Source: Escherichia coli (GTDB lineage Bacteria > Pseudomonadota > Gammaproteobacteria > Enterobacterales > Enterobacteriaceae). Taken from it: DNA of 64,000 bases. Location of the stretch: assembly GCF_001677475.2 (NCBI RefSeq), contig NZ_CP015229.1; one strand, 5' to 3'. Both the position numbers and the translations under genes were made by a program. Below the pieces are notes generated by a model, which worked only from the letters and a program-made list of their open reading frames with translations, ran no database searches and was not told the DNA's origin. This document shows, piece by piece, positions 17,200-56,114 of this stretch. Each line of letters starts with the position of its first letter. Positions within the stretch are counted from its first letter, which is position 1.

Positions 17200-17385
<186 letters not shown>

Positions 17386-18570: not shown

Positions 18571-19157
18571 TGGTGGACCAGGCGCAGGACACCCTGCGCC
18601 CGAATAACAGATTGTCAGATATGCAGGCAACAATGGAACAAACCCAGGCCTTTGAAAACCGTGTGCTTGAGCGTCTGAATGCTGGCAAAACCGTGCGAAG
18701 CTTTCTGATCACCGCCGTCGAGCTTTTGACCGAGGCGGTAAATCTTCTGGTGCTTCAGGTATTCCGCAAAGACGATTACGCGGTGAAGTATGCTGTAGAA
18801 CCGTTACTCGACGGCGACGGTCCGCTGGGCGATCTTTCTGTGCGTTTAAAACTCATTTACGGGTTGGGTGTCATTAACCGCCAGGAATACGAAGATGCGG
18901 AGCTACTGATGGCATTGCGTGAAGAGCTAAATCACGACGGCAACGAGTACGCGTTTACCGATGATGAAATCCTTGGACCCTTTGGTGAACTGCATTGCGT
19001 GGCGGCGTTACCACCGCCGCCACAGTTTGAACTTGCAGACGCCAGTTTGTATGCAATGCAAATTCAGCGTTACCAACAGGCTGTGCGATCAACAATGGTC
19101 CTTTCACTGACAGAGCTGATTTCCAAAATCAGCTTAAAAAAAGCCTTTCAAAAGTAA
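18570..19157 (+). CDS. mtlR: Mannitol operon repressor
   Basis: 195-aa ORF; ATG overlaps the mtlD TAA (taATGg). Confidence 0.9.
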   Translation: MVDQAQDTLRPNNRLSDMQATMEQTQAFENRVLERLNAGKTVRSFLITAVELLTEAVNLLVLQVFRKDDYAVKYAVEPLLDGDGPLGDLSVRLKLIYGLGVINRQEYEDAELLMALREELNHDGNEYAFTDDEILGPFGELHCVAALPPPPQFELADASLYAMQIQRYQQAVRSTMVLSLTELISKISLKKAFQK

Positions 19158-25905: not shown

Positions 25906-25937
25906 TGACCCATTAACAAATGGGTAAACGCCAAATT

Positions 25938-26020
25938 GCCTGATGCGCTACGCTTATCAGGCCTACAGGGGATTCTGCACATTCCTGTAGGCCGGATAAG
26001 GCGTTCACGCCGCATCCGGC
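25938..26020. repeat. REP pair (BIME) downstream of the adhesin gene
   Basis: gcctgatgcgctacgcttatcaggcctac (25938-25966) and gtaggccggataaggcgttcacgccgcatccggc (25987-26020). Confidence 0.65.
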
Positions 26021-26106
26021 AAGATAAGACGCACCAGGTCAATGGTCTAAGGGCAATTCTCTGACGGGGATTGCCCTTTTCTTTACCAGACATCTCCCTA
26101 TCAAAA

Positions 26107-26249
26107 AATTGGCCCTACCAATTCTTCGCTTATCTGACCACTGGTTCACAGTTCCCCAATTAAAACTCACATTAACGTTGCCAATACAAAACATTTAGTT
26201 AACTATTCATTGTCATTATCCCTACACAACAAAATTGGCAGTGCCACTT
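26107..26249 (+). promoter_or_regulatory. lldPRD control region with two LldR-type operators
   Basis: Palindrome AATTGGccctaCCAATT at 26107-26123 and related AATTGGcagtgCCActT at 26233-26249, ~200 and ~75 bp upstream of lldP ATG 26322. Confidence 0.5.
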
Positions 26250-26321
26250 TTACACAACGTGTGACAAGGAGATGAGCAACAGACTCATTACACGATGTGC
26301 GTGGCCTCCAGGAGACCTGCA

Positions 26322-27977
26322 ATGAATCTCTGGCAACAAAACTACGATCCCGCCGGGAATATCTGGCTTTCCAGCCTGATAGCATCGCTTCCCATCCTGT
26401 TTTTTTTCTTTGCGCTTATTAAGCTCAAACTAAAAGGCTATGTCGCCGCTACATGGACAGTCGTTATCGCTCTGACTGTCGCGCTATTGTTCTACAAAAT
26501 GCCGGTCGCCAATGCGCTGGCCTCAGTGGTTTATGGCTTCTTCTACGGTTTGTGGCCCATCGCGTGGATCATTATTGCAGCGGTGTTCGTCTATAAGATC
26601 TCGGTGAAAACCGGACAGTTTGACATCATCCGCTCGTCTATTCTTTCAATAACCCCTGACCAGCGCCTGCAAATGCTGATCGTCGGTTTCTGTTTCGGCG
26701 CATTTCTCGAAGGTGCCGCAGGCTTTGGCGCACCGGTAGCAATTACCGCCGCATTGCTGGTCGGGCTGGGCTTTAAACCGCTGTACGCCGCCGGGCTGTG
26801 CCTGATTGTTAACACCGCGCCGGTGGCATTTGGCGCGATGGGTATTCCGATTCTGGTTGCCGGACAGGTAACAGGCATCGACAGCTTTGAGATTGGCCAG
26901 ATGGTGGGACGTCAGCTACCGTTTATGACCATTATCGTGCTGTTCTGGATCATGGCGATTATGGACGGCTGGCGGGGTATCAAAGAGACGTGGCCTGCGG
27001 TCGTGGTCGCGGGAGGCTCGTTTGCCATCGCACAGTACCTTAGCTCTAACTTTATTGGGCCGGAACTGCCGGACATTATCTCTTCGCTGGTATCGCTGCT
27101 CTGCCTGACACTGTTCCTCAAACGTTGGCAGCCGGTGCGCGTTTTCCGCTTCGGCGATCTGGGCGCATCGCAAGTTGATATGACGCTGGCTCATACCGGT
27201 TACACCGCAGGTCAGGTGTTACGCGCCTGGACACCGTTCCTGTTCCTGACCGCCACCGTAACGCTGTGGAGTATTCCGCCGTTTAAAGCCCTGTTCGCTT
27301 CGGGTGGTGCGCTGTATGAATGGGTGATCAATATTCCGGTGCCGTACCTCAATAAACTGGTTGCCCGTATGCCGCCAGTGGTCAGCGAAGCGACAGCGTA
27401 TGCCGCCGTGTTTAAGTTCGACTGGTTCTCTGCCACCGGTACCGCCATTCTTTTTGCTGCCCTGCTCTCGATTGTCTGGCTGAAGATGAAACCATCTGAC
27501 GCTATCAGCACCTTCGGCAGCACGCTGAAAGAACTGGCTCTGCCCATCTACTCCATCGGTATGGTGCTGGCGTTCGCCTTTATCTCGAACTATTCCGGAC
27601 TATCATCAACGCTGGCGCTGGCACTGGCGCACACCGGCCATGCATTCACCTTCTTCTCGCCGTTCCTCGGCTGGCTTGGTGTCTTCCTGACCGGATCGGA
27701 TACCTCATCTAACGCCCTGTTCGCCGCCCTGCAAGCCACTGCAGCACAACAAATTGGCGTTTCTGACCTGTTGTTGGTTGCCGCCAACACCACCGGTGGT
27801 GTCACCGGTAAGATGATCTCTCCGCAATCTATCGCTATCGCCTGTGCGGCGGTAGGCCTGGTAGGCAAAGAGTCAGATCTGTTCCGCTTTACCGTCAAAC
27901 ACAGCCTGATCTTCACCTGTATGGTGGGCGTGATTACCACGCTTCAGGCCTACGTCTTAACGTGGATGATTCCGTAA
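26322..27977 (+). CDS. lldP: L-lactate permease
   Basis: Track ORF from 26295; conserved start ATG 26322 ([15 protein letters not shown]…) after AGGAG; 551 aa, multi-TM. Confidence 0.95.
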
Positions 27978-28753
27978 TGATGGTTATACCCAGACGCCTG
28001 TCAGACGAGGTAGCTTCCCGTGTGCGGGCGCTGATTGAAGAACAAAATCTGGAACCGGGCATGAAGTTGCCCGCTGAACGCCAACTGGCGATGCAGCTCG
28101 GCGTGTCGCGTAATTCACTGCGCGAGGCGCTGGCGAAACTGGTGAGTGAAGGTGTGCTTCTTAGTCGTCGCGGTGGCGGGACGTTTATTCGCTGGCGCCA
28201 TGACGTGTGGTCGGAACAAAACATCGTCCAGCCGCTGAAAACGCTAATGGCCGATGATCCGGATTACAGCTTCGATATTCTGGAAGCCCGCTACGCCATT
28301 GAGGCCAGCACCGCCTGGCACGCAGCAATGCGTGCCACACAAGCCGATAAAGAAAAGATACAGCTCTGCTTTGAAGCGACGCTGAGTGAAGACCCGGATC
28401 TCGCCTCGCAAGCGGACGTTCGTTTTCATCTGGCAATTGCCGAAGCCTCACATAACATCGTGCTGCTGCAAACCATGCGCGGTTTCTTTGATGTCCTGCA
28501 ATCTTCAGTGATGCAAAGTCGTCAGCGGATGTATCTGGTGCCGCCCGTTTTTTCGCAACTGACTGAACAGCATCAGGCGGTCATTAACGCCATTTTTGCC
28601 GGTGATGCCGACGGTGCGCGTAAAGCAATGATGTCGCACCTCAGCTTTGTCCACACCACCATGAAACGATTCGATGAAGATCAGGCTCGCCGTGCACGCA
28701 TTACCCGCCTGCCCGGTGAGCATAATGAGCATTCGAGGGAGAAAAACGCATGA
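27977..28753 (+). CDS. lldR: GntR/FadR-family L-lactate regulator
   Basis: Start taken at ATG 27977 ([11 protein letters not shown]…), overlapping the lldP stop by 1 nt, 258 aa; N-terminal wHTH. Confidence 0.9.
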
Positions 28754-29940
28754 TTATTTCCGCAGCCAGCGATTATCGCGCCGCAGCGCAACGCATTTTG
28801 CCGCCGTTCCTGTTCCACTATATGGATGGTGGTGCATATTCTGAATACACGCTGCGCCGCAACGTGGAGGATTTGTCAGAAGTGGCGCTGCGCCAGCGTA
28901 TTCTGAAAAACATGTCCGACTTAAGCCTGGAAACGACGCTGTTTAATGAGAAATTGTCGATGCCAGTGGCGCTGGCTCCGGTGGGTTTGTGCGGCATGTA
29001 TGCGCGTCGCGGCGAAGTTCAGGCAGCCAAAGCGGCTGATGCGCATGGCATTCCGTTTACTCTCTCAACGGTTTCAGTTTGCCCGATTGAAGAAGTCGCT
29101 CCAGCTATCAAACGTCCGATGTGGTTCCAGCTTTATGTGCTGCGCGATCGCGGCTTTATGCGTAACGCACTGGAACGGGCAAAAGCGGCGGGCTGTTCGA
29201 CACTGGTTTTCACCGTGGATATGCCGACGCCAGGCGCACGTTATCGTGACGCACACTCCGGTATGAGCGGCCCGAATGCCGCAATGCGCCGCTACTTGCA
29301 GGCGGTGACGCATCCGCAATGGGCGTGGGATGTCGGCCTGAACGGTCGTCCACATGATTTAGGTAATATTTCGGCTTACCTCGGCAAACCGACCGGACTG
29401 GAAGATTACATCGGCTGGCTGGGGAATAACTTCGATCCGTCCATCTCATGGAAAGACCTTGAGTGGATCCGCGATTTCTGGGATGGCCCGATGGTGATCA
29501 AAGGGATCCTCGACCCGGAAGATGCGCGTGATGCAGTACGTTTTGGTGCTGACGGGATTGTGGTTTCTAACCACGGTGGCCGCCAGCTGGACGGTGTACT
29601 CTCTTCCGCTCGTGCGCTGCCCGCTATTGCGGATGCGGTAAAAGGTGATATCGCCATTCTGGCGGATAGCGGGATTCGTAACGGGCTTGATGTCGTGCGT
29701 ATGATTGCGCTCGGTGCCGACACCGTACTGCTGGGTCGTGCTTTCCTGTATGCGCTGGCAACAGCGGGCCAGGCGGGTGTAGCTAACCTGCTGAATCTGA
29801 TCGAAAAAGAGATGAAAGTGGCAATGACGCTGACTGGCGCGAAATCGATTAGCGAAATTACGCAAGATTCGCTGGTGCAGGGGCTGGATAAAGAGTTGCC
29901 TGCGGCACTGGCTCCGATGGCGAAAGGGAATGCGGCATAG
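28750..29940 (+). CDS. lldD: FMN-dependent L-lactate dehydrogenase
   Basis: 396-aa ORF, alpha-hydroxy acid oxidase family (…[10 protein letters not shown]…). Confidence 0.95.
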
Positions 29941-30011
29941 TTGGGGTGAGGGGAAAAGGCCGTACCAATCACCAATTTTCTGCTATCCTGCCCCCGCACT
30001 AAGGGGGCAGT

Positions 30012-30485
30012 ATGCTAAACATCGTACTTTACGAACCAGAAATTCCGCCAAATACTGGCAACATCATCCGTCTTTGCGCTAATACCGGCTTTCGTCTACA
30101 TATCATCGAACCGATGGGATTTGCCTGGGACGATAAGCGCCTGCGCCGCGCGGGGCTGGACTATCACGAGTTTACCGCCGTTACGCGTCATCATGACTAT
30201 CGCGCGTTCGTCGAAGCCGAAAATCCCCAGCGCCTGTTTGCCCTCACCACGAAAGGTACGCCTGCTCACAGCGCCGTAAGCTATCAGGATGGCGATTATC
30301 TGATGTTCGGCCCGGAAACGCGCGGCCTGCCAGCAAGCATTCTTGATGCCCTGCCCGCTGAACAAAAAATTCGCATTCCAATGGTGCCGGACAGCCGCAG
30401 CATGAACCTGTCCAATGCGGTGTCGGTCGTGGTGTATGAAGCCTGGCGGCAGTTGGGATATCCGGGAGCGGTGTTGAGAGATTAG
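30012..30485 (+). CDS. trmL: tRNA (cytidine/uridine-2'-O)-methyltransferase TrmL
   Basis: 157-aa SPOUT-family ORF ([26 protein letters not shown]…). Confidence 0.9.
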
Positions 30486-30494
30486 TTACGCCAT

Positions 30495-30532
30495 GCCGGA
30501 TAAGATGCGTTATGAACCGCATCGCATCCGGC
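30495..30532. repeat. REP-like hairpin between convergent trmL and cysE
   Basis: gccggataagatgcg…cgcatcgcatccggc imperfect palindrome. Confidence 0.5.
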
Positions 30533-30546
30533 ATAATCACAGGACA

Positions 30547-31368
30547 TCAGATCCCATCCCCATATTCAAACGTATGGTTAATACCGTTGAAATGCTGATC
30601 CATGTCCATTGACGGTTTATCGCTGTCTGGTTTACCGACAATGCGTGCCGGAACGCCAGCGGCGGTGGTATGCGGCGGCACCGGTTGCAGCACCACGGAA
30701 CCTGCGCCAATCTTCGCGCCGCGCCCAACTTCAATATTGCCGAGGATTTTCGCGCCCGCGCCAATCATCACACCTTCACGAATTTTCGGGTGACGGTCAC
30801 CACCAGATTTACCCGTACCGCCAAGCGTGACAGATTGCAGTATCGACACATCGTTTTCAATCACCGCCGTTTCACCAACGACGATGCCTGTCGCGTGGTC
30901 GAGCATGATACCGCGACCGATTTTTGCTGCCGGGTGAATATCCACCTGGAACGTCACAGAAACCTGGTTTTGCAGAAAGATTGCCAGTGCGCGGCGGCCC
31001 TGATTCCACAGCCAGTGACCGATGCGATAGGCCTGCAAGGCATGAAAACCTTTCAGGTATAACAGTGGGGTTGAGTATTTATCGACTGCCGGGTCGCGGG
31101 TACGTACGGCCTGAATATCGCAGGCCGCAGAAGCGATCATTTCCGGGTCGGCGGCGTAGGCTTCTTCAACCACTTCGCGGATAGCAATGGCAGGCATAAT
31201 TGGCGATGACAGCTTGTTCGCCAGCATGTAGCTCAGTGCACTGCCAAGGTTTTCGTGCTTGAGTAGCGTTGCGTGGTAAAAACTGGCCAGCATTGGCTCA
31301 CAGTCCGCCAGCGTTCTGGCTTCCGCTTTAATATTGTTCCAGACAATTTCCAGTTCTTCACACGACAT
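30547..31368 (-). CDS. cysE: Serine O-acetyltransferase
   Basis: 273-aa ORF with hexapeptide-repeat C-terminal region. Confidence 0.95.
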   Translation of the reverse strand: MSCEELEIVWNNIKAEARTLADCEPMLASFYHATLLKHENLGSALSYMLANKLSSPIMPAIAIREVVEEAYAADPEMIASAACDIQAVRTRDPAVDKYSTPLLYLKGFHALQAYRIGHWLWNQGRRALAIFLQNQVSVTFQVDIHPAAKIGRGIMLDHATGIVVGETAVIENDVSILQSVTLGGTGKSGGDRHPKIREGVMIGAGAKILGNIEVGRGAKIGAGSVVLQPVPPHTTAAGVPARIVGKPDSDKPSMDMDQHFNGINHTFEYGDGI

Positions 31369-31447
31369 TGCTTACTCCACACGATGAGATAATGACCGGC
31401 TCGTTCTGCGCGAGCCGGGTCATAGCGGTAACAAAGGTTCCCTGGGT

Positions 31448-32467
31448 TTAGTGGCTGCTTCGCTCGTCCTTGCGTGCACGACCTAATAACGTCAATGCTG
31501 CCTCGCGCGCGTTTTTTCCGCAATATAATACTTGATAAATTTCCTCGGTTATTGGCATTTCAACGCCGAAGCGATGCGCCAGTTCGCGGACTTCTTTCGT
31601 ATTGCGGTAGCCTTCCACCACCTGACCAATCTTCTCTTGCGCGCTTTGTACATCCATGCCCTGACCGAGCATCATGCCAAAACGGCGGTTACGCGACTGG
31701 TTGTCGGTACAGGTAAGCACCAGATCGCCCAGCCCCGCCATGCCCATAAAGGTGGCAGGATCGGCACCCAGCGCCGCGCCAAGACGCGACATTTCAGCCA
31801 GGCCACGGGTGATTAGCGCCGTACGCGCATTCGCGCCAAAACCGATACCGTCGGACATCCCCGCGCCAATGGCAATGACGTTTTTCACCGCGCCGCCAAG
31901 CTGCACGCCAATGAAATCCGGGTTACTGTAAACGCGGAAACTTTTACCGCAGTGCAGCAGCTGCTGAAGATCATCAGCAAAAGTTTGGTCGGTCGAGGCC
32001 AGCGAAATGGCTGTCGGTAAACCTGCCGCCAGTTCTTTCGCAAACGTTGGGCCAGAGATAACCGCCAGCGGAATTTGATCGCCTAACGCCTCGCGCGCCA
32101 CGTCCTGTAACAGACGTCCGGTTTCCGCTTCCAGCCCTTTGGTCGCCCACACCAGACGCGCATCAGGACGCATCAGCGGTTTAATCTGACGCAGCACTTC
32201 ACCAAAGACATGGCTGGGTACGACGACGAGAATATTACGGCTGGCTGCCAGCGCAGTGGCGAGATCGCTTTCAAGATGGAGCGTATCGGGAAAAGGCACA
32301 TCGGGGAGAAACGCGGCGTTACAGCGGTCGCGTTCAAGCGTTGCGATATGTTCAGGGTCATGGCCCCAGAGGACAACCTCGTGGCCATTTCTTGCCAGGG
32401 TGATGGCAAGAGCGGTGCCGTACGAGCCGGCACCGATCACAGTCATTGAAGCATTACGTTGGTTCAT
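31448..32467 (-). CDS. gpsA: NAD(P)H-dependent glycerol-3-phosphate dehydrogenase
   Basis: 339-aa ORF; N-terminal [10 protein letters not shown] Rossmann motif. Confidence 0.95.
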
Positions 32468-32934
32468 CAGGCATCCTGATGTTCTTCAGTACCTTCGCCA
32501 GCCTGCTGCTGCAAATAGTTCATGAACAGCGCATCGAAGTTAACCGGCGCAAGGTTCAGTTGCGGGAATGTACCGCGGGATACCATGCTGGTGATGCACT
32601 CACGAGCATACGGGAACAGAATGTTCGGGCAGTATGCGCCCAGGCAATGTGCCATCTGGGTGCCTTCGATACCCGCGATGGAGAAAATACCGCCCTGCTG
32701 AACTTCACACAGGAACGCGGTTTCTTCGCCCAGGGAGGCCGTTACGGTAACACGCAGTACCACTTCGTAAACGTCATCTGCCAGTTGAGTAGATGCCGTA
32801 TCCAGATCAAGTTTAACTTCTGGCTGCCAATCTTTCTGGAAAACGTGCGGCGCGTTCGGCGCTTCGAAAGAAATATCCTTGGTATAAATACGTTGGATCT
32901 GGAAAGTCATTTCGGTGTTGTTTTGTTCTGACAT
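32467..32934 (-). CDS. secB: Protein-export chaperone SecB
   Basis: 155-aa ORF ([29 protein letters not shown]…). Confidence 0.95.
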
Positions 32935-32996
32935 GTGTAGAAAACCCTTAAGTGTTGTCCTTAAATACTGCGCAATGTAATGCCAACGTTCGCACG

Positions 32997-33248
32997 TTAT
33001 TTCAGCAGGGGATCCAGTCCACCACGTGCATCCAATGCATACAAGTCATCACAGCCGCCAATGTGCTGTGCGTCAATAAAAATCTGGGGAACCGTGGTGC
33101 GACCGCTGCGTTTGATCATCTCTTCACGCTTAGCGGCGTTGCCATCGATCGGCAACTCCTGAAAACTCACACCCTTGCTGCTCAGCAGTGCTTTCGCACG
33201 ATGGCAATACGGGCAGGTTTCTTTGGTATAGATTTCAACATTGGCCAT
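32997..33248 (-). CDS. grxC: Glutaredoxin 3
   Basis: 83-aa ORF with CPYC active site. Confidence 0.95.
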
Positions 33249-33389
33249 AAATTAGCTCCTGTTTTTTTACCCTGAAATTTCATGTTGCAGGGCGGCAGCA
33301 AAATGGAGTGTCCCCAGAAGCTTATAACAATAAGTCGCTGGGGGCCTAATTGCAGCTAACGGCCTGCATCATGAAAGACGACAGGTAAA

Positions 33390-33821
33390 TTATTTGCCGC
33401 GCACCAAAGGCAAGTTTTCGCCAGCCCAGCCAGCAACGCCCTCTTTCAGCACGAATACTTGCGCAAAACCCGCTTTCGTCAGTGCGTTTGCAGGCTCCTG
33501 GCACTGCATGCCAGAACCGTCTACCACGATAACTGGTTTGTCTTTGTGCTTCTCAAGCTCACCAACATTGTTGGCTTTGATTTCGCTCGGCAACAGGTTG
33601 ATAGAACCTGCGATATGGCCTTTACGGAAGTCATCACGCTGACGTAAATCCACAACCACAGCATCTTCTTTGTTGATCAGACGCGTAGCTTCACCACGAG
33701 TAATCACCTTCACTTTCGAGGTCAGGCTCTTAAACGTAGTCACAATAACCGCCACCAGTAACGCGATCCAGGCGATACTCAGTATGGGATGACGGCCAAC
33801 AAATTGCATAATTTCTTGCAT
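33390..33821 (-). CDS. yibN: Rhodanese-domain inner-membrane protein YibN
   Basis: Start chosen at ATG 33821 ([12 protein letters not shown]…, 143 aa); the track's longer ORF begins at a TTG four codons upstream. Confidence 0.85.
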
Positions 33822-34063
33822 GGGGGGTAACAACTCCCGACGTAGTGATTAAAAACCAGGGAAGGAGTATACCTGCGCGTTGCGGCAAATACAGCCAGCG
33901 CGTGCACCGGAATGCAATTTTGCGGCACGCTACGAAAAAAAATCGCAAATCTGGCATCGGCTTGCCGCGAGCGGTCGTATATTTTGATCTTCAGAGGCTA
34001 TTTTATCGATTCAGCTGTAGTAAAATTACGCAAATTTTGACTCTTGAGTATGAGGTTGTCGCA

Positions 34064-35608
34064 ATGTCGGTTTCTAAAAAACCTATGGTACTGGTGATTC
34101 TGGATGGCTATGGCTATCGTGAAGAACAACAGGATAACGCCATTTTTAGTGCTAAAACCCCGGTAATGGATGCACTGTGGGCCAATCGTCCGCATACCCT
34201 GATCGACGCTTCCGGTCTGGAAGTCGGTCTGCCTGACCGTCAGATGGGTAACTCCGAAGTAGGCCACGTTAACCTGGGTGCCGGCCGCATCGTGTATCAG
34301 GACCTGACTCGTCTGGACGTTGAAATCAAAGATCGCGCTTTCTTTGCTAATCCGGTGCTGACTGGCGCGGTAGATAAAGCGAAAAACGCAGGCAAAGCAG
34401 TTCACATTATGGGTCTGCTCTCCGCAGGCGGCGTACACAGCCACGAAGATCACATCATGGCGATGGTAGAACTGGCAGCTGAACGCGGCGCAGAAAAAAT
34501 CTACCTGCACGCATTCCTTGACGGTCGCGACACTCCGCCGCGCAGTGCTGAATCCTCGCTGAAAAAATTCGAAGAGAAATTTGCCGCACTGGGCAAAGGC
34601 CGCGTAGCGTCCATCATTGGTCGTTACTACGCGATGGACCGCGATAACCGTTGGGATCGCGTTGAAAAAGCTTATGACCTGCTGACTCTGGCGCAGGGCG
34701 AGTTCCAGGCCGATACCGCCGTTGCTGGTTTGCAGGCTGCTTATGCTCGCGACGAAAACGACGAATTCGTGAAAGCGACCGTTATTCGTGCAGAAGGTCA
34801 GCCAGACGCGGCAATGGAAGACGGCGATGCGCTGATTTTCATGAACTTCCGTGCTGACCGCGCGCGTGAAATCACTCGTGCATTCGTGAACGCTGATTTC
34901 GATGGCTTCGCGCGTAAGAAAGTGGTTAACGTCGATTTCGTGATGCTGACCGAATACGCCGCTGACATCAAAACTGCGGTTGCTTACCCACCCGCTTCCC
35001 TGGTTAACACCTTCGGCGAGTGGATGGCGAAAAACGACAAAACTCAGCTGCGTATTTCCGAAACCGAAAAATATGCCCACGTCACTTTCTTCTTTAACGG
35101 TGGCGTAGAAGAGTCGTTCAAAGGCGAAGATCGCATTCTGATCAACTCACCGAAAGTGGCTACCTACGATCTGCAACCGGAAATGAGCTCCGCAGAGCTG
35201 ACCGAAAAACTGGTTGCGGCAATCAAGAGCGGCAAATACGACACCATTATCTGTAACTATCCGAACGGCGACATGGTAGGTCACACCGGGGTGATGGAAG
35301 CGGCGGTTAAAGCGGTTGAAGCGCTGGATCACTGCGTGGAAGAAGTCGCGAAAGCGGTTGAGTCCGTGGGTGGACAACTGCTGATCACCGCTGACCACGG
35401 TAACGCTGAGCAGATGCGCGATCCGGCAACGGGTCAGGCACACACGGCACACACCAACCTGCCAGTTCCGCTGATTTACGTTGGTGATAAGAACGTGAAA
35501 GCGGTTGAAGGCGGCAAACTTTCTGACATCGCGCCGACCATGTTGTCGCTGATGGGTATGGAAATCCCGCAAGAGATGACTGGTAAGCCGCTGTTCATCG
35601 TGGAATAA
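34064..35608 (+). CDS. gpmM: 2,3-bisphosphoglycerate-independent phosphoglycerate mutase
   Basis: Track ORF from 33845; conserved start ATG 34064 ([19 protein letters not shown]…) after GAGG; 514 aa. Confidence 0.95.
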
Positions 35609-35641
35609 TCCCTCCCCATGAGGGGAAAGGCGATTAATACC

Positions 35642-36901
35642 ATGACACGGGCCGTGAAACCGCGCAGGTTTGCAATCAGGCCCATCATCTACGCCAGCGT
35701 TCTGAGCGCTGGCGTATTGTTGTGCGCCTTTTCCGCCCACGCGGATGAGCGTGACCAACTCAAATCCATTCAGGCTGACATCGCCGCGAAAGAGCGCGCG
35801 GTACGCCAAAAGCAACAACAACGCGCAAGCCTGCTCGCACAATTGAAAAAGCAGGAAGAAGCGATCTCTGAAGCCACCCGTAAACTGCGCGAAACGCAAA
35901 ACACGCTCAATCAACTGAATAAACAGATTGATGAGATGAACGCGTCGATTGCCAAACTGGAGCAGCAAAAAGCCGCCCAGGAGCGCAGCCTCGCCGCACA
36001 ACTGGATGCCGCATTCCGTCAGGGCGAGCATACCGGTATTCAGCTAATTCTCAGCGGTGAAGAAAGCCAGCGTGGTCAGCGTTTACAGGCTTATTTCGGC
36101 TATCTCAACCAGGCGCGACAAGAAACCATTGCTCAGTTGAAACAAACGCGTGAAGAAGTCGCTATGCAGCGTGCCGAACTGGAAGAGAAACAGAGCGAGC
36201 AACAAACGCTTTTATATGAGCAGCGCGCCCAACAGGCGAAGCTGACCCAGGCGTTGAGCGAGCGTAAAAAGACGCTGGCAGGGCTGGAGTCTTCCATCCA
36301 GCAAGGTCAGCAACAGTTGAGCGAGCTGCGCGCCAACGAATCCCGTCTGCGTAACAGCATTGCCCGTGCGGAAGCCGCGGCGAAAGCGCGTGCTGAACGT
36401 GAAGCGCGCGAAGCCCAGGCGGTTCGCGACCGCCAGAAAGAAGCGACGCGCAAAGGCACCACCTACAAACCGACCGAAAGCGAAAAATCGCTGATGTCCC
36501 GAACTGGTGGCCTGGGTGCGCCGCGTGGTCAGGCATTCTGGCCGGTTCGCGGGCCGACGTTGCATCGCTATGGCGAGCAGCTACAGGGTGAATTACGCTG
36601 GAAAGGGATGGTTATCGGTGCCTCTGAAGGTACTGAAGTTAAAGCGATTGCCGACGGTCGGGTGATTCTGGCTGACTGGCTGCAAGGCTACGGTCTGGTG
36701 GTGGTGGTTGAGCATGGTAAAGGCGACATGAGTCTTTACGGCTATAATCAGAGCGCACTGGTGAGCGTTGGTTCGCAGGTTCGCGCGGGCCAGCCAATTG
36801 CACTGGTGGGCAGCAGTGGCGGTCAGGGTCGGCCTTCACTCTATTTCGAAATTCGCCGCCAGGGTCAGGCGGTCAATCCACAGCCGTGGTTGGGAAGATA
36901 A
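35642..36901 (+). CDS. envC: Murein hydrolase activator EnvC
   Basis: Start at ATG 35642 (MTRAVKPRRFAIRP…), 419 aa; signal peptide, long coiled coil, C-terminal LytM/M23 domain. Confidence 0.9.
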   Translation: MTRAVKPRRFAIRPIIYASVLSAGVLLCAFSAHADERDQLKSIQADIAAKERAVRQKQQQRASLLAQLKKQEEAISEATRKLRETQNTLNQLNKQIDEMNASIAKLEQQKAAQERSLAAQLDAAFRQGEHTGIQLILSGEESQRGQRLQAYFGYLNQARQETIAQLKQTREEVAMQRAELEEKQSEQQTLLYEQRAQQAKLTQALSERKKTLAGLESSIQQGQQQLSELRANESRLRNSIARAEAAAKARAEREAREAQAVRDRQKEATRKGTTYKPTESEKSLMSRTGGLGAPRGQAFWPVRGPTLHRYGEQLQGELRWKGMVIGASEGTEVKAIADGRVILADWLQGYGLVVVVEHGKGDMSLYGYNQSALVSVGSQVRAGQPIALVGSSGGQGRPSLYFEIRRQGQAVNPQPWLGR

Positions 36902-36904
36902 GTT

Positions 36905-37864
36905 TTGTTTCCATTTCGTCGTAACGTTCTTGCATTTGCCGCTCTGTTGGCGCTCTCCTCCCCCGTAATTGCTGGCAAACTTGCCATCGTCATTGATGAT
37001 TTTGGGTATCGCCCGCACAACGAAAACCAGGTGCTGGCGATGCCTTCCGCTATCTCCGTCGCTGTATTACCCGATTCACCGCACGCCAGAGAGATGGCAA
37101 CCAAAGCGCATAACAGCGGTCACGAAGTGTTGATTCATCTACCGATGGCACCACTGAGTAAACAGCCGCTGGAGAAAAATACGCTACGCCCGGAGATGAG
37201 CAGCGACGAAATTGAGCGCATTATTCGTAGTGCGGTCAATAATGTGCCCTATGCCGTGGGGATCAACAACCACATGGGCAGCAAGATGACCTCTAACCTG
37301 TTTGGTATGCAGAAAGTGATGCAGGCGCTGGAGCGTTACAATCTTTACTTCCTCGACAGCGTAACCATTGGTAATACCCAGGCGATGCGCGCCGCGCAAG
37401 GCACTGGCGTGAAGGTGATCAAACGGAAGGTGTTCCTCGACGATTCACAGAACGAAGCGGACATCCGTGTGCAGTTCAATCGCGCAATTGATCTGGCGCG
37501 TCGCAACGGTTCGACCATTGCCATTGGGCATCCTCACCCTTCCACGGTACGCGTGTTACAACAGATGGTTTATAACCTGCCGCCAGACATTACGCTGGTG
37601 AAAGCCAGCAGCTTGCTGAATGAACCGCAGGTTGATACGTCTACACCGCCGAAAAACACTGTGCCCGACACACCGCGTAATCCGTTCCGTGGCGTGAAGC
37701 TCTGCAAACCGAAGAAACCGATAGAACCTGTTTATGCTAATCGCTTCTTTGAAGTATTAAGCGAAAGCATCAGCCAGAGCACGCTGATCGTTTACTTCCA
37801 ACATCAGTGGCAAGGCTGGGGCAAACAGCCCGAAGCGGCAAAACTTAACGCTAGCGCAAATTAA
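36905..37864 (+). CDS. yibQ: Divergent polysaccharide deacetylase-family protein YibQ
   Basis: 319-aa ORF; first codon in the track is TTG at 36905, directly after the envC stop; start codon uncertain. Confidence 0.8.
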   Translation: MFPFRRNVLAFAALLALSSPVIAGKLAIVIDDFGYRPHNENQVLAMPSAISVAVLPDSPHAREMATKAHNSGHEVLIHLPMAPLSKQPLEKNTLRPEMSSDEIERIIRSAVNNVPYAVGINNHMGSKMTSNLFGMQKVMQALERYNLYFLDSVTIGNTQAMRAAQGTGVKVIKRKVFLDDSQNEADIRVQFNRAIDLARRNGSTIAIGHPHPSTVRVLQQMVYNLPPDITLVKASSLLNEPQVDTSTPPKNTVPDTPRNPFRGVKLCKPKKPIEPVYANRFFEVLSESISQSTLIVYFQHQWQGWGKQPEAAKLNASAN

Positions 37865-38885
37865 AGGCGCTGCGCGTAATGCGATGGTGCGACCGCGTTT
37901 TGTCGCGCCATTGCCATAAGCGGAAAGACCACAGTAACGCCTGATAACCCACCTTCACGCTGCGCACATTGGTAATCAGGCGCTTATACATACCGGAAGT
38001 AAATATCTCGGCAATCATCCGTTGGCGGGTAATAATATCCGGCTCTTTACGCACCGCATGGCAAACACGCAATGCTTCGTAAGTTATTTGCTGATGAAAT
38101 TCCGGGTAAATCGTAATTTTGTCGGCATAATTTCGATTTAATTTCTCCAGCAGGCGGGTAATCTTAATATAGTGACGTTGATAATTAAGGTTTTTATTCC
38201 CTTGTCTATTCAACCGACTCACTGACGTATTATGCAGATAATATTTATATAACGATTGCTCGGTATATCGCGCACGCAAAGCGTTAAACATGAATTCTGT
38301 TGTCCAGACAATATCCTGATGATGTAATCCGGCTATAAATTTAATGTTATTTTTAACAATAACATCGCGGCGATAAACCCCCATCCAGACAACGTGAGTC
38401 CAACGGCGCGAAGAAAGCCCCATCCGCAGCCAGTCCGGGCCGGTTAATACGCCGGTTGAGCGAAGGCGATCGGTGGGGATGGATTGCCAGGTTTCTCCCG
38501 TTTCACGAAAACACCAATCAGCGTTGCACTGCGCCACGTCGAGGTCGTCCTCTAACGCCATGGTCATCAGCGTTTCGTACATGGTGGGATAGACCTCATC
38601 GTCAGCATCGACAAAAGCGACATATTTTCCCGTTGCCACTTCAATCCCACGATTACGCGCCACCGATGCGCCAGCATTCGCCTGATGCAACAAACGAACG
38701 TGCGGATAGTTTTCTGCGTAATACTTTGCTATTTCAACAGAATTATCCGTTGAACCATCGTTAATAATAATGATTTCCAGAGCAGTCCAGGTTTGCGTAA
38801 TTAAAGATTCCATACAAGTGCGGAAATCATCGCCCGCATTATATAACGGAATAATAACACTAAGTTTATTGGTGCTGTTCATCAT
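37851..38885 (-). CDS. waaH: Family-2 glycosyltransferase WaaH (YibD)
   Basis: 344-aa ORF with GT-A motifs (…IIINDGSTDNS…, …DADD…); 3' end overlaps yibQ convergently. Confidence 0.85.
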   Translation of the reverse strand: MMNSTNKLSVIIPLYNAGDDFRTCMESLITQTWTALEIIIINDGSTDNSVEIAKYYAENYPHVRLLHQANAGASVARNRGIEVATGKYVAFVDADDEVYPTMYETLMTMALEDDLDVAQCNADWCFRETGETWQSIPTDRLRSTGVLTGPDWLRMGLSSRRWTHVVWMGVYRRDVIVKNNIKFIAGLHHQDIVWTTEFMFNALRARYTEQSLYKYYLHNTSVSRLNRQGNKNLNYQRHYIKITRLLEKLNRNYADKITIYPEFHQQITYEALRVCHAVRKEPDIITRQRMIAEIFTSGMYKRLITNVRSVKVGYQALLWSFRLWQWRDKTRSHHRITRSAFNLR

Positions 38886-39123
38886 AAATTACCGACGACC
38901 TCTGAAGTTATCCTGACGTTTTACAGGCTTTGTATTAAGAAACTATTAAGCCTGTGAGATATTATTTTTACAGGTGAGAGAGTCACTTCAGAGTAGAGAG
39001 ATAATGAGAGCAGCTATATAAGAGATCAGCGCAATTACGATATCTTTATTACACTGACAGGATTTTACATATTTAACGGATTATCCTCAGGCAAAAGGGC
39101 TGGAATACCAGCCCTTGTTCGTG

Positions 39124-40149
39124 TTAATCCCAGCTCAGAATAACTTTCCCGGACTGGCCCGAACGCATGGCGTCAAAGCCCTTCTGGAAATCATCGATAG
39201 AGAAACGATGGGTAATGATCGGCGAGAGATCGAGGCCAGACTGAATCAGCGCCGCCATCTTGTACCAGGTTTCAAACATCTCACGACCGTAAATACCTTT
39301 AATGAACAAGCCTTTAAAGATCACTTTGGTCCAGTCGATAGACATATCAGACGGTGGAATACCCAGCATCGCAATGCGACCGCCGTGGTTCATGGTGTCG
39401 AGCATGGTACGAAACGCTGGCGGCGCACCGGACATTTCCAGACCGACATCAAAGCCTTCGGTCATGCCTAGCTCCGCCATCACGTCATTGAGATTTTCTT
39501 TCGCGACGTTAACCGCACGGGTGATACCCATTTTGCGCGCCAGCTCAAGGCGGTATTCGTTAACATCAGTAATCACCACGTTACGTGCACCAACGTGTTT
39601 CGCCACCGCCGCCGCCATAATACCAATCGGGCCTGCACCAGAGACCAGCACATCCTCGCCCACCAGATCAAACGACAGCGCGGTATGCACGGCGTTACCG
39701 AAGGGATCAAAAATGGAAGCCAGATCATCGGAGATATTGTCGGGGATTTTGAAAGCGTTGAACGCCGGAATCACCAGATACTCGGCGAAGCAGCCCGGAC
39801 GGTTAACGCCGACGCCGATCGTGTTGCGGCACAGATGGGTACGACCGCCACGACAGTTGCGACAGTGACCGCAGGTGATATGGCCTTCGCCAGAAACGCG
39901 ATCGCCAATCTTGAAGCCTTTCACTTCCTGACCAATACCTACCACTTCACCGACATATTCATGGCCCACGACCATCGGCACCGGGATGGTTTTTTGCGAC
40001 CACTCATCCCAGTTATAGATGTGAACGTCAGTCCCGCAGATGGCTGTTTTACGGATTTTAATCAGCAGATCGTTATGCCCGAGTTCCGGTACAGGAACGT
40101 CGGTCATCCAGATGCCCTCTTCCGCTTTCAGTTTGGATAACGCTTTCAT
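39124..40149 (-). CDS. tdh: L-threonine 3-dehydrogenase
   Basis: 341-aa zinc-dependent MDR-family ORF. Confidence 0.95.
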
Positions 40150-40158
40150 CTCACATCC

Positions 40159-41355
40159 TCAGGCGATAACGCCCAGTTGTTTACCAATACGCGTGAATGC
40201 TTCTACTGCACGCGTAATTTGCTCAGGGGTATGCGCCGCAGACATCTGGGTACGAATACGCGCCTGACCTTTCGGAACGACCGGATAGAAGAAACCGGTG
40301 ACGTAAATGCCCTCTTTTTGCAGCTCACGGGCAAATTTCTGCGCCACTACTGCATCACCAAGCATGACCGGAATAATGGCGTGATCGGCTCCCGCCAGGG
40401 TAAAGCCCGCCGCCGACATTTGCTCACGGAACTGACGCGCGTTCGCCCAGAGACGGTCACGCAGCTCGCTACCCGCTTCAACCATCTCCAGCACTTTGAT
40501 GGACGCGGCAACAATGGCCGGTGCCAGCGAGTTGGAGAACAGGTACGGACGAGAACGCTGGCGCAGCCACTCAACCACTTCTTTGCGCGCCGCGGTATAA
40601 CCACCAGAAGCCCCGCCCAGCGCTTTACCGAGCGTGCCGGTGATAATATCGACCCGGCCCATCACATCGCAGTATTCATGGGAACCACGACCGTTTTCAC
40701 CGACAAAACCTACCGCGTGGGAGTCGTCTACCATCACCAGGGCATCATATTTATCTGCCAGATCGCAAACGCCCTTCAGGTTGGCAATCACGCCGTCCAT
40801 CGAGAACACACCATCGGTGGCAATCAGCACATGACGCGCACCGGCTTCACGCGCTTCTTTCAGACGTGCTTCCAGCTCCTGCATATCGTTGTTGGCATAG
40901 CGATAGCGTTTAGCTTTGCACAGACGCACACCATCAATAATAGACGCGTGGTTCAGTGCGTCGGAGATAATGGCGTCCTCCGCGCCTAACAGCGTTTCGA
41001 ACAGGCCACCGTTAGCATCAAAGCAGGAAGAGTAGAGAATCGCATCTTCCATCCCCAGGAAGGCCGCCAGTTTTTGTTCAAGCTCTTTATGGCTGTCCTG
41101 AGTGCCGCAAATAAAACGCACCGAAGCCATGCCGAAACCGTGAGAATCCATTCCCGCCTTTGCTGCCGCAATCAGATCCGGATGATTCGCCAGCCCGAGA
41201 TAGTTGTTGGCACAAAAGTTAATGACGTGGCTTCCATCAGCCACAGTGATATCTGCTTGCTGCGCAGACGTAATAATGCGCTCTTCTTTAAACAACCCTT
41301 CCGCCCGTGCGGTTTCCAGATCGTTGGTTAACTGCTGATAAAATTCTCCACGCAT
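40159..41355 (-). CDS. kbl: 2-amino-3-ketobutyrate CoA ligase (glycine C-acetyltransferase)
   Basis: 398-aa PLP-dependent ORF, immediately upstream of tdh. Confidence 0.95.
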
Positions 41356-46966: not shown

Positions 46967-47782
46967 TTATCTTATCTTATCCTGTGACTTTGACTCTTCT
47001 GAACTGATATCGAGAGGCTTAATAAATGGAATTACATCGTAAGAAATAGCCGTATCATCTGACAAATTATAAATATTAATATCTTCTACATTATCACGCA
47101 TAAAACGGAAAAATGGCAAGATTTTAAACAAATCCCTACTCAATTCCGAGGGCATAGGATTGTTACTTTCGTCATAGAAACGAGTACAACTACCAGTTAA
47201 ATCAAGACCAGAACAAATAATCCGCGCATACTTCAGCGAATAGGCTATTTGGATTGCAGCAAAGGCAACGGTATGGCATGAACAATAACCGAGATTAATA
47301 TCCTTGCAAAAGCCAACCAGACGACCTTTTTTAGAAAAAGGTACAGAAATCAGGAGCTCTTTATGAATTCGGCTCAAAATATTAAACTTAATCTTCTTAA
47401 TCAATCCACCTTTTTCTCTGCGGTAAAATGAACGTAGTACCAAGCAGTTTTGAAGGATGTACCGTTTATCTTCTTCAGAAGCATGTTCATAAACATCAAC
47501 ATTTACGATGGTATAACGACTTCTCTGGCTAAATTTATAAAAATCATCACGTCGTTGATGTAAAAAGCGAACATCAGTAAGTACATAAATATACGGAATA
47601 ATATTATGACTTAATAGATATTGCGCAGAACCATTGACAGCAATAACATCCCTTGTCTGCAGCACTGACAATGGTGTTTTTTGCGATGTGGGGCCGGAAA
47701 GAAAAATAATAACATCATCAGACGTTTTACTTTCTATCAGGTTCTCAACATCTTTTTTGCCAATGTATCTAATATTCTTCAT
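46967..47782 (-). CDS. waaZ: LPS core biosynthesis protein WaaZ
   Basis: 271-aa ORF in the K-12-type position between waaY and waaU; start codon not verified. Confidence 0.8.
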   Translation of the reverse strand: MKNIRYIGKKDVENLIESKTSDDVIIFLSGPTSQKTPLSVLQTRDVIAVNGSAQYLLSHNIIPYIYVLTDVRFLHQRRDDFYKFSQRSRYTIVNVDVYEHASEEDKRYILQNCLVLRSFYRREKGGLIKKIKFNILSRIHKELLISVPFSKKGRLVGFCKDINLGYCSCHTVAFAAIQIAYSLKYARIICSGLDLTGSCTRFYDESNNPMPSELSRDLFKILPFFRFMRDNVEDINIYNLSDDTAISYDVIPFIKPLDISSEESKSQDKIR

Positions 47783-49625: not shown

Positions 49626-50645
49626 TTAATTCTTTATCTTTTCAATAAAATAAAAAAGATAGTTGCTAAATCCTTTTAGATATCTATGCTTTTTAAGCAT
49701 ATGTTTTGCGCTATATCTTAATTGATTGCTATTATTCGGTTTCAGCAACGCCGTACTCTTCCATGGCGAAGCATTTTTTGCCTCCATAAAGGCTTGTGAT
49801 ACAGGATAATCCCAAGCCCAATCATGCCAGGGCTTGGTTGGACCGATATAGTGGATAAAAATAGTATCGTTGGTTACTGGGTTTGTAAAACTTTCTTTGA
49901 GTTGATAGTTTAAGCTAAACTGGGTGTTATATTTAATATCAGCAAAAATAAGTCTGTCTGCCAGCAACATATTTAATACATCCTGATCAGGATGTGTTAT
50001 TTTTTTGACTATTTCCGAATCATTTAGCATTGCAATGGCTCGTGCAGAAACCTGCTGAGCCGCCCATTGGTCAGTATTAATCAATAAAAAACCGGAGTTA
50101 AAGTAACCTTTAGCAATTCCCGCAACACCTAACGAATGTGCGCGTTTTTCCCACCAGTCAGCTTGCCCTTCTGTAACAACCATTGCGACTTTATCGTCAG
50201 GAAATGAGAATTTAATTAGGGGCTCAATAGTCCCCTGACAAATGATATCTGCATCCAGATAAAGGACTTTAGCCGCCTTATTAATAAAGTAATCTGCAAT
50301 AACAAAACGAAAATATATTGCATGAGTCCAGTTCTTTGTGCTAGGCAATGAGCGCAGTCGATCACCATTAATCAGATATATTTTAATTCTGGTTTTATAC
50401 TGCAACGCCAGTGCATCAAAATATTTACGATCATCATCACCAAAATAATCAGTAAAAATATGGAAGCACAATCGACTTCCTTCATTATACTTTAATATTG
50501 AAGCAATCGAAATTCCGCAACCAAATAGAAAATTTTTGTCAGTTCCATAAGCGATGTCCAGACAAAGATTTTCTGTTTCTACTTTATGATTATAATCAAT
50601 AACTGAATTAAGAAACTCAGTCTCCTGGAAAAACACCTGCTGCAT
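49626..50645 (-). CDS. waaO: GT8 LPS alpha-1,3-glucosyltransferase WaaO (WaaI)
   Basis: 339-aa family-8 glycosyltransferase, paralogous to the adjacent waaJ. Confidence 0.85.
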   Translation of the reverse strand: MQQVFFQETEFLNSVIDYNHKVETENLCLDIAYGTDKNFLFGCGISIASILKYNEGSRLCFHIFTDYFGDDDRKYFDALALQYKTRIKIYLINGDRLRSLPSTKNWTHAIYFRFVIADYFINKAAKVLYLDADIICQGTIEPLIKFSFPDDKVAMVVTEGQADWWEKRAHSLGVAGIAKGYFNSGFLLINTDQWAAQQVSARAIAMLNDSEIVKKITHPDQDVLNMLLADRLIFADIKYNTQFSLNYQLKESFTNPVTNDTIFIHYIGPTKPWHDWAWDYPVSQAFMEAKNASPWKSTALLKPNNSNQLRYSAKHMLKKHRYLKGFSNYLFYFIEKIKN

Positions 50646-51724
50646 TATTTCCTCCGGGAAATAGCAGAAATAATTATCTTATGTAATCTATCGTAATACT
50701 TCGATTTATAAAACTTATCGATCGACTCAGGAATTTTTTCATGTTCGATATGAATTTCACCTGCTATATATTTATTGAGAAGAGTTACAAAACCAGCAAT
50801 ATCTCCCGGTTGATACAGATGACCATTAACATCAGGTTGAATAATGTCAGCAGGCCCGGAGACACAATCGGCGCTGATGCAAGGAATTCCCCATGACAAG
50901 GCTTCAAGTAGGGTCATTGGGAAACCTTCAAAAGATGACGTGAGCAATAACGCACTCACTTTTTTAATATCTTGCTGGACCAATTCCCAGGGATGTTGTT
51001 GCCAACCATACCAGACAACTCGATCATCAATATTTAATTCTCTACCATAAGCCTGGCATTTTTCGAAATCGGAGCCATCTCCCAATACATGAAGTTTCCA
51101 GTCACCTTGCACTTGTGATAAGCCATCAAGGAGGTCTTTAACCCGCTTCTGGCCCTCGAATTTCATACGCCCAACATAAATGAACGTTGCCGTTTCACCT
51201 TCCTCAGGCCCAGGAATAACTGTGTCTTTAGCTTCGACTGGATTAAAAATAACATTTATCGTCGATTCTGGTACACCCCGATTAATCATTTGCTGTTTAA
51301 TGCCAGAGCTGATGGCTAAATGATAATCGGCACAGGTGATATATTCAGCATGTTTTTTGTGATCTAAAGAAAAATGCGGCCATGAAAATACAGGTACATC
51401 AATTCCCGATTTTTTACGAGCTTTGGCCGCATACAAACACGAGATCACGTCAATACAAATAACAACATCTGGCTGATAATCCTGAAGCCATTTGCTTAAA
51501 GCATGAATATGTTTCGCCCGACGCAAACAACCTAAGCGAATATTGGAAAATGAACACGAGTACTTAATACCGTCCAGCCATCCCTTATCCATTTTGTCAT
51601 TACGACAAAAGAAAAACATTTCACTATGGATATGTTGTTGCCTGAAGGTAGTAATAACATCACGAATGACTGTTTCCATGCCGCCAAATCCAGAAACAGC
51701 TTCGCCGATAAATGCTATTTTCAT
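50645..51724 (-). CDS. waaB: GT4 LPS alpha-1,6-galactosyltransferase WaaB
   Basis: Track ORF 369 aa; start taken at ATG 51724 (MKIAFIGEAVSGFGGMETV…, 359 aa); ATG 51736 and GTG 51754 are alternatives. Confidence 0.85.
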   Translation of the reverse strand: MKIAFIGEAVSGFGGMETVIRDVITTFRQQHIHSEMFFFCRNDKMDKGWLDGIKYSCSFSNIRLGCLRRAKHIHALSKWLQDYQPDVVICIDVISCLYAAKARKKSGIDVPVFSWPHFSLDHKKHAEYITCADYHLAISSGIKQQMINRGVPESTINVIFNPVEAKDTVIPGPEEGETATFIYVGRMKFEGQKRVKDLLDGLSQVQGDWKLHVLGDGSDFEKCQAYGRELNIDDRVVWYGWQQHPWELVQQDIKKVSALLLTSSFEGFPMTLLEALSWGIPCISADCVSGPADIIQPDVNGHLYQPGDIAGFVTLLNKYIAGEIHIEHEKIPESIDKFYKSKYYDRLHKIIISAISRRK

Positions 51725-51767: not shown

Positions 51768-52692
51768 TTATTTTTCTATAAAATCAGAAACAATTGTTGA
51801 CATCATTTTATCAGGGCTGAATTTATATAAACTATCATAATCCATTGGTTTAACAGATGAGTTAATAAAATACTCTAACTTATCCCAATCATCATGCCCC
51901 ATTATAAAAAAGCGAGATTCACTATAGATTTCTGAACCAAGGATATTTATATTATTAGTAATTAATTTTTTATTGAAAAATAGTGCCTCAAGTATACGAA
52001 GAGTCCAGCCAGATTGGTTTTCTTTAGTTATATCAATAATTATATTAGCATTTAATATGCTCTTCATAAGGTAATTGCTTTTCAATCAAATACTTTGAAG
52101 TCGGAGATGATGTCTTATCTTTGACAACATTAAAATCTAGCTTACATCCTAGTGCTGTTAATCTATCGGCTAATTCATTAATTATTTGAAGACGTCCTTT
52201 ATCACGACCAAGAAAAAAACATATTGGCTGACTGTTATTTTTGTCAGATAAACTATAATTTATAATTTCATCCATTCCTATAGGAAAAAATCATTTTATT
52301 GCCTTGGTCTTTTCATTCCCTATAAATCTATGCTCAAAATTATAGATAATATCAAAATAATTAGAGTTATCAAAAATAAAATCTTCGCTGACAGTATTTC
52401 TTAGAAGTAATAGTTTACGATAATTAATATTTCTTAATATTTGCTTGTTAATACCTTTATTAATGACACTGTCATTAAAGATAATTATATCATCCTTTTT
52501 TACAGCATTTAGGTGATGTTTGATAAATAATCGCCCCAACCATGCATTATCCATCCCTAATTTCGAAATTTTCTTATTAACCCAGTTGTATTTGTTTGGT
52601 GTTGTTATATTTTTTATCTTGTACTTTTTTTTCAGGTACTGGATCATCTTTAATTCATAATCTGCAACCCAGTTTATAAAATAAATAGTCAT
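51768..52692 (-). pseudogene. waaS: waaS-like LPS core gene disrupted by an in-frame TGA and a frameshift
   Basis: Three consecutive minus-strand ORF fragments (52291..52692, 52045..52275, 51768..52085) together span 925 nt where one ~311-aa gene is expected. Fragments 1 and 2 share a frame and are separated by TGA (52291-52293); fragments 2 and 3 overlap in different frames. Confidence 0.6.
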
Positions 52693-52728: not shown

Positions 52729-53526
52729 TTATAATCCTTTGCGTTGTGTTCGCTCTTTAATATGCTCGGCCTTAACACTTGCCATGTTCAATAAATTCCG
52801 TTCAAGAGATAATATCTTACGTAAAGGCATCCCAAAATAAACCTTCATAAATCGCCAGATATCTCTCTGCGTTAGACCAATATTCATTGATGAGAAATAT
52901 AAACCAATCAAATCTTTATCCCGCCAACGACGTGGTACTTTTGCCCGTATCTGCGCGCGATGCAGGTCTATTACCGAAATTTTTAACCCATCTTCCCGGC
53001 CAGTAAATGGCAAATGGAGCAAAAAGTGGCAAATATAACAGTCGCGGTGATTTATCCCTGCGGCGTGCATTTTGTGCACCATGGTTGCCACACGCGCGAT
53101 CAGCATACGCTTAATATGTACATCAGGCGGGTTGACCGCCCAATCTGCACAATAATCTTCAAGGCTAATCGTGGGAGTGAGATCTTCGGTAATAATAAAT
53201 GATGTGCGAGTTAATGGATTTAACCCTTTTTCACCAAACCCTATTCCGTGCATCGTATCAACACCGACATCATGCAGTCGATGAATAGCGTGCCACTCTC
53301 TGTCTGCGCCTAAAACGGGCATCCGCAATGAGAGCAGGTTTTTTATAATTTCTTTTAAAGTCGTCCCTTTGTGCCACTTGAGGAAATAGCTTTTCCCGGC
53401 CAGTTCAAAGCGTAATGTGCGACGCGTCTCGAGTTCACGAAAGACCTCGCCATTCAGTTTTTTAACTTCTGCAAAGGCATCTTTACCACGCCAGAGTGTG
53501 GCAAGTGGCTCTTTTAATTCAACCAT
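52729..53526 (-). CDS. waaP: LPS core heptose I kinase WaaP
   Basis: 265-aa kinase-like ORF, overlaps the waaG 3' end by 8 nt. Confidence 0.9.
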
Positions 53527-55757: not shown

Positions 55758-55769
55758 CACGCTACCGCC
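55758..55769 (-). promoter_or_regulatory. ops element (RfaH recruitment site) in the waaQ operon leader
   Basis: Exact 12-mer GGCGGTAGCGTG on the transcribed (minus) orientation, reverse complement of cacgctaccgcc at 55758-55769, ~85 nt upstream of the waaQ start. Confidence 0.75.
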
Positions 55770-56114
55770 CCAGGCTCAACAGCTACCCGAATACTGATAA
55801 CGCACTTACTTTGACGCGCTAGTGTATCATTTCTTTCGCAGCAATCCGACCCGAATGATTTTTATACACAAAATATGATTTAACCATAAAAATCATATAG
55901 ATAAAATTTTGCATACAGAGAATCCAGATATTGTCTATGTAAAGTTGCAATCCTGGCTGAAATTCAATGAATCGCATAAAAATACAAAAAAATGAAGATT
56001 TAGCAGCAGATCAGCTCAAACAGAGACTATTTAAGTCAAAAACGGGAAAAGTAATGGTAAAGCCACAGCTAAATACATAGAATCCCCAGCACATCCATAA
56101 GTCAGCTATTTACT

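Follow-up and report, generated by a model that had tools for sequence, protein, structure and literature searches.

At 51768..52692 on the reverse strand of the window (the whole 64-kb stretch of Escherichia coli DNA analysed here) lies the pseudogene remnant of waaS (rfaS), a lipopolysaccharide (LPS) gene, which measures 925 nt as against 936 nt for the intact gene. The remnant is read as three reverse-strand ORFs: fragment 1 (52291-52692; 133 aa), closed by a TGA at 52291-52293; fragment 2 (52045-52275; 76 aa); and fragment 3 (51768-52085), which is 105 aa long from a TTG and 99 aa from its first ATG. An inactivated waaS in three ORFs of 133, 76, and 105 aa was the starting point of the original prediction, and the ORF list agrees with it exactly. 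The described layout likewise holds: fragments 1 and 2 share one frame, with the TGA followed by five sense codons (FFPIG) and then a Met, and fragments 2 and 3, in differing frames, share positions 52045-52085. The tblastn match to intact WaaS runs from 52692 to 52054 for residues 1-213 and from 52055 to 51771 for residues 217-311. Both neighbours are intact and on the same strand, namely waaP upstream (52729..53526; 265 aa, 100% identical to its 18KM2445 counterpart) and waaB downstream (50645..51724; 359 aa from the annotated ATG). In annotation, the three waaS ORF fragments should become one merged pseudogene.

The surrounding cluster is of the K-12 core type, as had been proposed. Searches by tblastn with K-12 and 18KM2445 proteins recover a collinear waaQ-G-P-S-B-O-R-Y-Z-U, in which the gene for the GT9 heptosyltransferase WaaU stands last, and WaaU is 92% identical to that of K-12 over 357 aa.

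To locate the lesions, we aligned the window with 18KM2445 (the closest record, with an intact rfaS), an ST131 strain, and K-12 MG1655, and the alignment bears out that waaS is broken by a nonsense change and a frameshift. The nonsense change is a premature TGA at codon 134 (52291..52293, reverse strand), where two adjacent transitions, C400T and A401G (nt 400-401), have replaced the ancestral CAA (Gln); codon 134 is CAA in 18KM2445, ST131, K-12, and every other allele compared. The frameshift stems from an 11-bp deletion (junction at 52052..52057, reverse strand), by which nt 637-647 of the intact gene, ATTAACAGAAC, were lost; the frame shifts at the junction and a stop then follows at 52045-52047. 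The deleted segment is flanked by 5-bp direct repeats, ATTAA, one copy of which is kept in the window, and in its sequence the lesion bears the signature of a slipped-strand or microhomology deletion, an irreversible event. Additionally, there are four derived, lineage-private missense changes (52059..52421, reverse strand), C91Y (52421), V94L (52413), D118N (52341), and N212H (52059). Every difference specific to the window's waaS is derived relative to the 18KM2445 allele.

Intact waaS encodes 311 aa in K-12, in ST131, and in the six closest complete genomes, including 18KM2445. The K-12 gene (b3629) aligns as an uninterrupted 311-codon ORF, so the interruptions are not ones that K-12 also carries, an outcome that the original prediction had named as fatal to itself. 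By megablast, 1,030 of 5,426 complete E. coli genomes have the waaS locus (4396/5426 were without a waaS match), with a median of one copy per complete genome. The locus was fully covered in 1029/1030, over 1062 nt in every match listed and 1051 nt in the window. Because 1029 of the 1030 genomes align across the locus with 1062 nt rather than 1051 (among the matches listed), the state of the window's waaS is derived and not a matter of chance; its internal stop and frameshift are derived relative to intact orthologues, as those of a pseudogene should be. The broken allele itself occurs in no complete RefSeq E. coli (5,426 genomes), and the deletion junction has 0 matches among the GTDB species representatives. 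Exact look-ups of forms carrying only the stop, only the deletion, or only the missense changes returned no intermediate allele. A 172-aa ORF was considered as a candidate intermediate and set aside, the instances being contig-end truncations or other lesions instead.

What the gene once encoded is still legible. Conceptually repaired, the 311-aa WaaS matches the NCBIfam profile for the WaaS/CpsH glycosyltransferase (NF053598.1, 318 positions, cut-off of 60 bits) with 173.7 bits over positions 2-317 of 318; a match of this kind, obtained from a repaired translation, attests to ancestry and not to current function. Pfam yielded no significant family for WaaS, and a PDB sequence search yielded noise only. 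Coverage of NF053598.1 is divided among the fragments, with none for the 133-aa ORF, positions 155-226 for the 76-aa ORF, and positions 226-317 for the 99-aa ORF, so that three ORFs stand where a single uninterrupted one would be expected to hold the whole domain. Because no remaining ORF spans the glycosyltransferase domain, no active WaaS is expected.

The substitutions accumulated by the broken allele point in the same direction. We assessed purifying selection from dN/dS among intact waaS alleles and polarised the changes in the window against three sister alleles of the cluster. Among the intact alleles, dN/dS is 0.16 (18KM2445 vs K-12), 0.28 (18KM2445 vs ST131), and 0.08 (K-12 vs ST131), values that resemble those of waaR and waaU and indicate purifying selection. 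With the other ten waa genes as the baseline, 2.04 lineage-private substitutions would be expected in the window's waaS, and six are present (Poisson P=0.018, on small counts). All five changed codons (5/5, again a small count) are non-synonymous or nonsense and none is synonymous, an outcome with P=0.016 under the gene's usual mix of synonymous and non-synonymous changes and P=0.35 under neutrality. On these small counts a signature of relaxed constraint is present, and the excess of substitutions agrees with a waaS that would have drifted after its inactivation.

It is very improbable that waaS still works, whether by recoding (read-through of the TGA or selenocysteine insertion, together with frameshifting) or through assembly of the fragments into a split enzyme. 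Such a scheme could appeal to fragment 3, which by itself exceeds the NCBIfam cut-off (108 bits), and to the Met codon that comes five codons after the TGA, but it requires three separate polypeptides, of which the N-terminal one matches nothing and the others only positions 155-226 and 226-317. All intact alleles, moreover, have Gln at codon 134 and keep the 11 nt, and the sequence after the TGA, read directly and without structure prediction, holds no slippery heptamer or SECIS-like hairpin; the stop and shift are therefore neither conserved among orthologues nor accompanied by a nearby signal, as programmed recoding would have them. The excess of lineage-private missense changes also indicates that constraint has been lost. 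Phase variation of waaS was likewise considered and rejected, as the dinucleotide substitution and the direct-repeat deletion are both irreversible; a reversible change in a simple sequence repeat, such as marks phase-variable LPS genes, was not found in the waaS ORF.

The broken form recurs outside the window. The whole waaS region, with both lesions and the four missense changes, is base-identical in contigs from ERR3309125, SRR25942434, and SRR30944602, and the SRR25942434 waaS contig is found in 8 samples as well as in 16 further similar places. Contigs from SRR22006506 and GCA_025810455.1 start inside waaS, and the part that they cover, both lesions included, is base-identical too. In the NCBI and Logan collections, the exact 133-aa fragment is present in several NCBI E. 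coli accessions (24-30 contigs) and the 99-aa fragment on 14 contigs. Over 10.4 kb of the waa cluster, one carrier contig shows 0 differences from the window and ERR3309125 shows 3. As a side observation, ERR3309125 has T for G in radC/yicR (at the equivalent of window position 59690), which leads to a 148-aa radC call; radC is intact in the window. The allele is thus reproducible across independent isolates, and the broken form of waaS is an inherited allele of a lineage and not an artefact.

The remaining alternative of the original prediction, that sequencing or assembly errors in one assembly conceal an intact gene, has next to no chance of being right and we count it as excluded, since, although waaS is homopolymer-rich at 27% G+C and the ‘frameshifted’ waaS genes of the same family in AF40 (A8->A7) and O158:H23 (A6->A4, A6->A5) have all their indels in A-runs and could be long-read artefacts, the window's lesions are a dinucleotide substitution and an 11-bp deletion, neither a homopolymer change, and recur base for base in five or more data sets that different submitters generated independently, with the fragments on 14-30 contigs.

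The expectation that all flanking waa genes are of full length stood for every gene except one: the others are complete (99-100% protein identity to 18KM2445), whereas waaZ, which encodes the KdoIII transferase (46967..47782, reverse strand), is 271 aa long instead of 285. The cause is a 5-bp slippage, (GATAA)2->(GATAA)3, at 46967-46981, by which the frame shifts and the last TAA becomes the stop. The 14 terminal residues lost lie outside the conserved profile. The truncated and full proteins score 539.7 vs 539.4 bits against the NCBIfam WaaZ equivalog (profile positions 1-265 of 269), and tail length already differs between K-12 and 18KM2445. Given the unchanged equivalog score and the variable tail, the truncated WaaZ is probably still active. 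At least 14 contigs carry the 271-aa allele, among them a 5.50-Mb chromosome (ANO91574.1), and four contigs have it alongside the waaS fragments; it is absent from ERR3309125, which over 20.4 kb departs from the window at 4 SNPs. Because it is absent from so nearly identical a genome, the waaZ allele is younger than the waaS lesions. The (GATAA)2/3 polymorphism between near-identical strains is repeat slippage, confined to 2-3 units and to a tail outside the conserved core. An apparent second (GATAA)3 waaZ on an independent waaS-null background was discarded, the gene being merely cut by a contig end; one further contig is equally uninformative.

A JUMPstart element lies in the waaQ leader (55758..55796, reverse strand; Rfam RF01707, 53.1 bits vs a gathering score of 35), and within it an exact ops site, GGCGGTAG, occupies 55762-55769 on the same strand. 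This pair, as expected in the leader of an RfaH-dependent operon, is the putative RfaH loading site of the operon containing waaS. The untranslated 523 nt of waaS are 12% C. With an RfaH-modified polymerase expected to transcribe the operon, and with so little C in the untranslated stretch, waaB through waaU should experience only slight Rho-dependent polarity. The ops 8-mer occurs elsewhere in the window as well, its 6 copies (at 17672, 21493, 24738, 27848, 55762, and 60830) comparing with 1.4 expected, a number reached in 1/100 shuffles. Only the copy at 55762 sits in a JUMPstart element, and two copies, probably coding coincidences, lie inside the ORF of a 1554-aa YadA-like trimeric autotransporter adhesin (21241-25905, forward strand). 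At this locus 18KM2445 has a gene of 1808 aa, and the window's variant is shorter and strongly diverged from it (65-78% DNA identity).

The window is of uneven descent. Its backbone is at most 96.7% identical to any complete E. coli over positions 1-19000 and at most 97.1% over 26300-41300. Starting at ~44 kb, the waa block matches 18KM2445 at 99.1-99.9% identity; for the 56-64 kb flank the identity is 99.3%, to strains of which 042 is an example. Judged by these identities, recombination appears to have brought the K-12-type waa block into a divergent Escherichia background. A mosaic breakpoint is seen near waaC/waaL, at about 43-44 kb. The most divergent housekeeping stretch of the window is lldP-lldR-lldD (25000-31000), at 91-96% identity to 18KM2445.

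Taken together, we consider it very probable that the window's waaS is truly a pseudogene and has been inherited vertically. An ancestor's 311-codon waaS would have gained a stop at codon 134 and an 11-bp deletion at codons 213-216, in either order, and the broken gene would then have drifted without constraint in this Escherichia lineage. The case would be one of ordinary decay of a known and dispensable accessory LPS gene.

The function lost is known from K-12. WaaZ adds the third Kdo, and WaaS is a rhamnosyltransferase whose addition of rhamnose (Rha) needs prior KdoIII; the glycoforms concerned, IV, V, and VII, accumulate upon induction of RpoE, BasSR, or PhoBR, and the absence of WaaZ or WaaS induces neither the Rcs nor the RpoE stress response (PMC4651636, PMC6358824, two reviews from the same group that summarise Klein et al. 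2011). The ‘minor glycoforms’ that the original prediction expected to be altered are these rhamnose-bearing KdoIII glycoforms IV/V/VII (PMC4651636, PMC6358824). From K-12 genetics, we infer that in carriers the main core (glycoform I) would still be made and O-antigen still be attached, with transcription of waaB to waaU expected to go on and the third Kdo probably still added by WaaZ, and that rhamnose addition to KdoII/KdoIII would be lost in the glycoforms induced through RpoE, BasSR, or PhoBR. The predicted phenotype of carriers is therefore a normal glycoform I, a ligated O-antigen, and a Kdo region without rhamnose.

Despite typing as ‘K-12 core’, such strains should be scored WaaS-negative (no inner-core Kdo rhamnose). 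The WaaZ/WaaS glycoform pathway, which has been characterised in K-12 alone, would thus be dispensable and occasionally lost in nature, and natural waaS knock-outs are available for studying the role of the minor glycoforms.

Other disruptions of waaS exist. Two sequences with another, MEW-like allele, one a metagenome contig and the other from SRR12789775, carry a nonsense change, R54* (C160T); the SRR12789775 copy also has a 1-bp deletion. Among complete genomes, waaS is interrupted by IS1 in strains 1449 (at ~nt 666) and R3 (close to the 5' end) and by IS2 in strain TO6 (at ~nt 648); the alleles of these three strains are of the ST131 and K-12 types. Within the window's own allele family, two of eight complete genomes are annotated as frameshifted (AF40 and O158:H23 CFIAFB20140388), and their waaS indels, all in A-runs, may be assembly artefacts. 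In AF40 (11847-12909), whose waaS indel affects an A8 run, waaU is annotated as frameshifted as well, and homopolymer errors may account for this. Gross disruption affects <1% of the 1030 complete genomes holding the gene, among the matches inspected. Loss of waaS is thus recurrent but uncommon. A search of the literature brought up no relevant report of waaS pseudogenes.

Why selection on waaS was relaxed admits several answers, each held more loosely than the pseudogene reading itself. One possible answer, which we advance tentatively, is neutral loss in a lineage without a rhamnose donor, where the O-antigen cluster perhaps lacks rmlBDAC (for dTDP-L-rhamnose) and WaaS would be useless. The genes rmlC and rmlD, which dTDP-L-Rha synthesis requires, are known in E. 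coli only from the O-antigen clusters of serogroups that contain Rha; the rfb locus lies ~1.5 Mb from the window. The two disabling hits accumulated in waaS and the contrast between its relaxed-constraint signature and the purifying selection on intact alleles are consistent with neutral loss, but any other cause that relaxed or reversed selection would account for that signature just as well.

A broader proposal, which we regard as doubtful, is that waaS has been lost repeatedly and independently across natural Escherichia (Q134* with the 11-bp deletion, R54*, two IS1 insertions, and one IS2 insertion) under a definable cause. Candidate causes may be that O-serogroups without Rha lack the dTDP-rhamnose donor, or that a phage or host factor recognising the Rha-Kdo epitope exerts selection. 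Were the proposal true, the RpoE-controlled glycoform switch of K-12 would be a variable rather than a fixed trait in wild strains. Less probable still, and in our judgement unlikely, is adaptive loss, in which Rha-modified inner-core glycoforms are disfavoured (e.g. under pressure from phages or from host lectins or antibodies). It would explain the recurrent knock-outs, since the R54* null is on another allele background and the insertions (IS1 at two sites, in 1449 and R3, and IS2 in TO6) are independent, but it sits poorly with the rarity of gross disruptions and with the clear purifying selection on intact alleles, and in the literature searched no ligand or phage is known for the Rha-Kdo epitope.

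Whatever the cause, a vertically inherited pseudogene compares as follows with known systems. K-12 waaS/rfaS (b3629) occupies the same place, between waaP and waaB in waaQGPSBORYZU, at a DNA identity of 92%, but is an intact 311-aa ORF, whereas the window's allele has Q134*, the 11-bp deletion, and four extra missense changes. The closest intact allele, that of 18KM2445 (WP_089705666.1), belongs to the same family and the same cluster (99.4% identity over 9 kb); it differs in that its waaS is unbroken and in its backbone, which outside the waa block is ~3% different from that of the window. The waaS pseudogenes annotated by PGAP (1449, R3, TO6, AF40, and O158:H23) and the R54* allele resemble the window in that the same gene is hit while its neighbours are intact, but their lesions and allele backgrounds differ from those of the window, and they are therefore independent events. 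Salmonella Typhimurium LT2, reportedly in the work of Klena et al. in 1992, is without waaS. The core clusters of Salmonella and of E. coli R1/R3/R4 likewise specify a core without WaaS-dependent rhamnose; there waaS is absent, whereas in the window a decaying remnant of the gene is still present.
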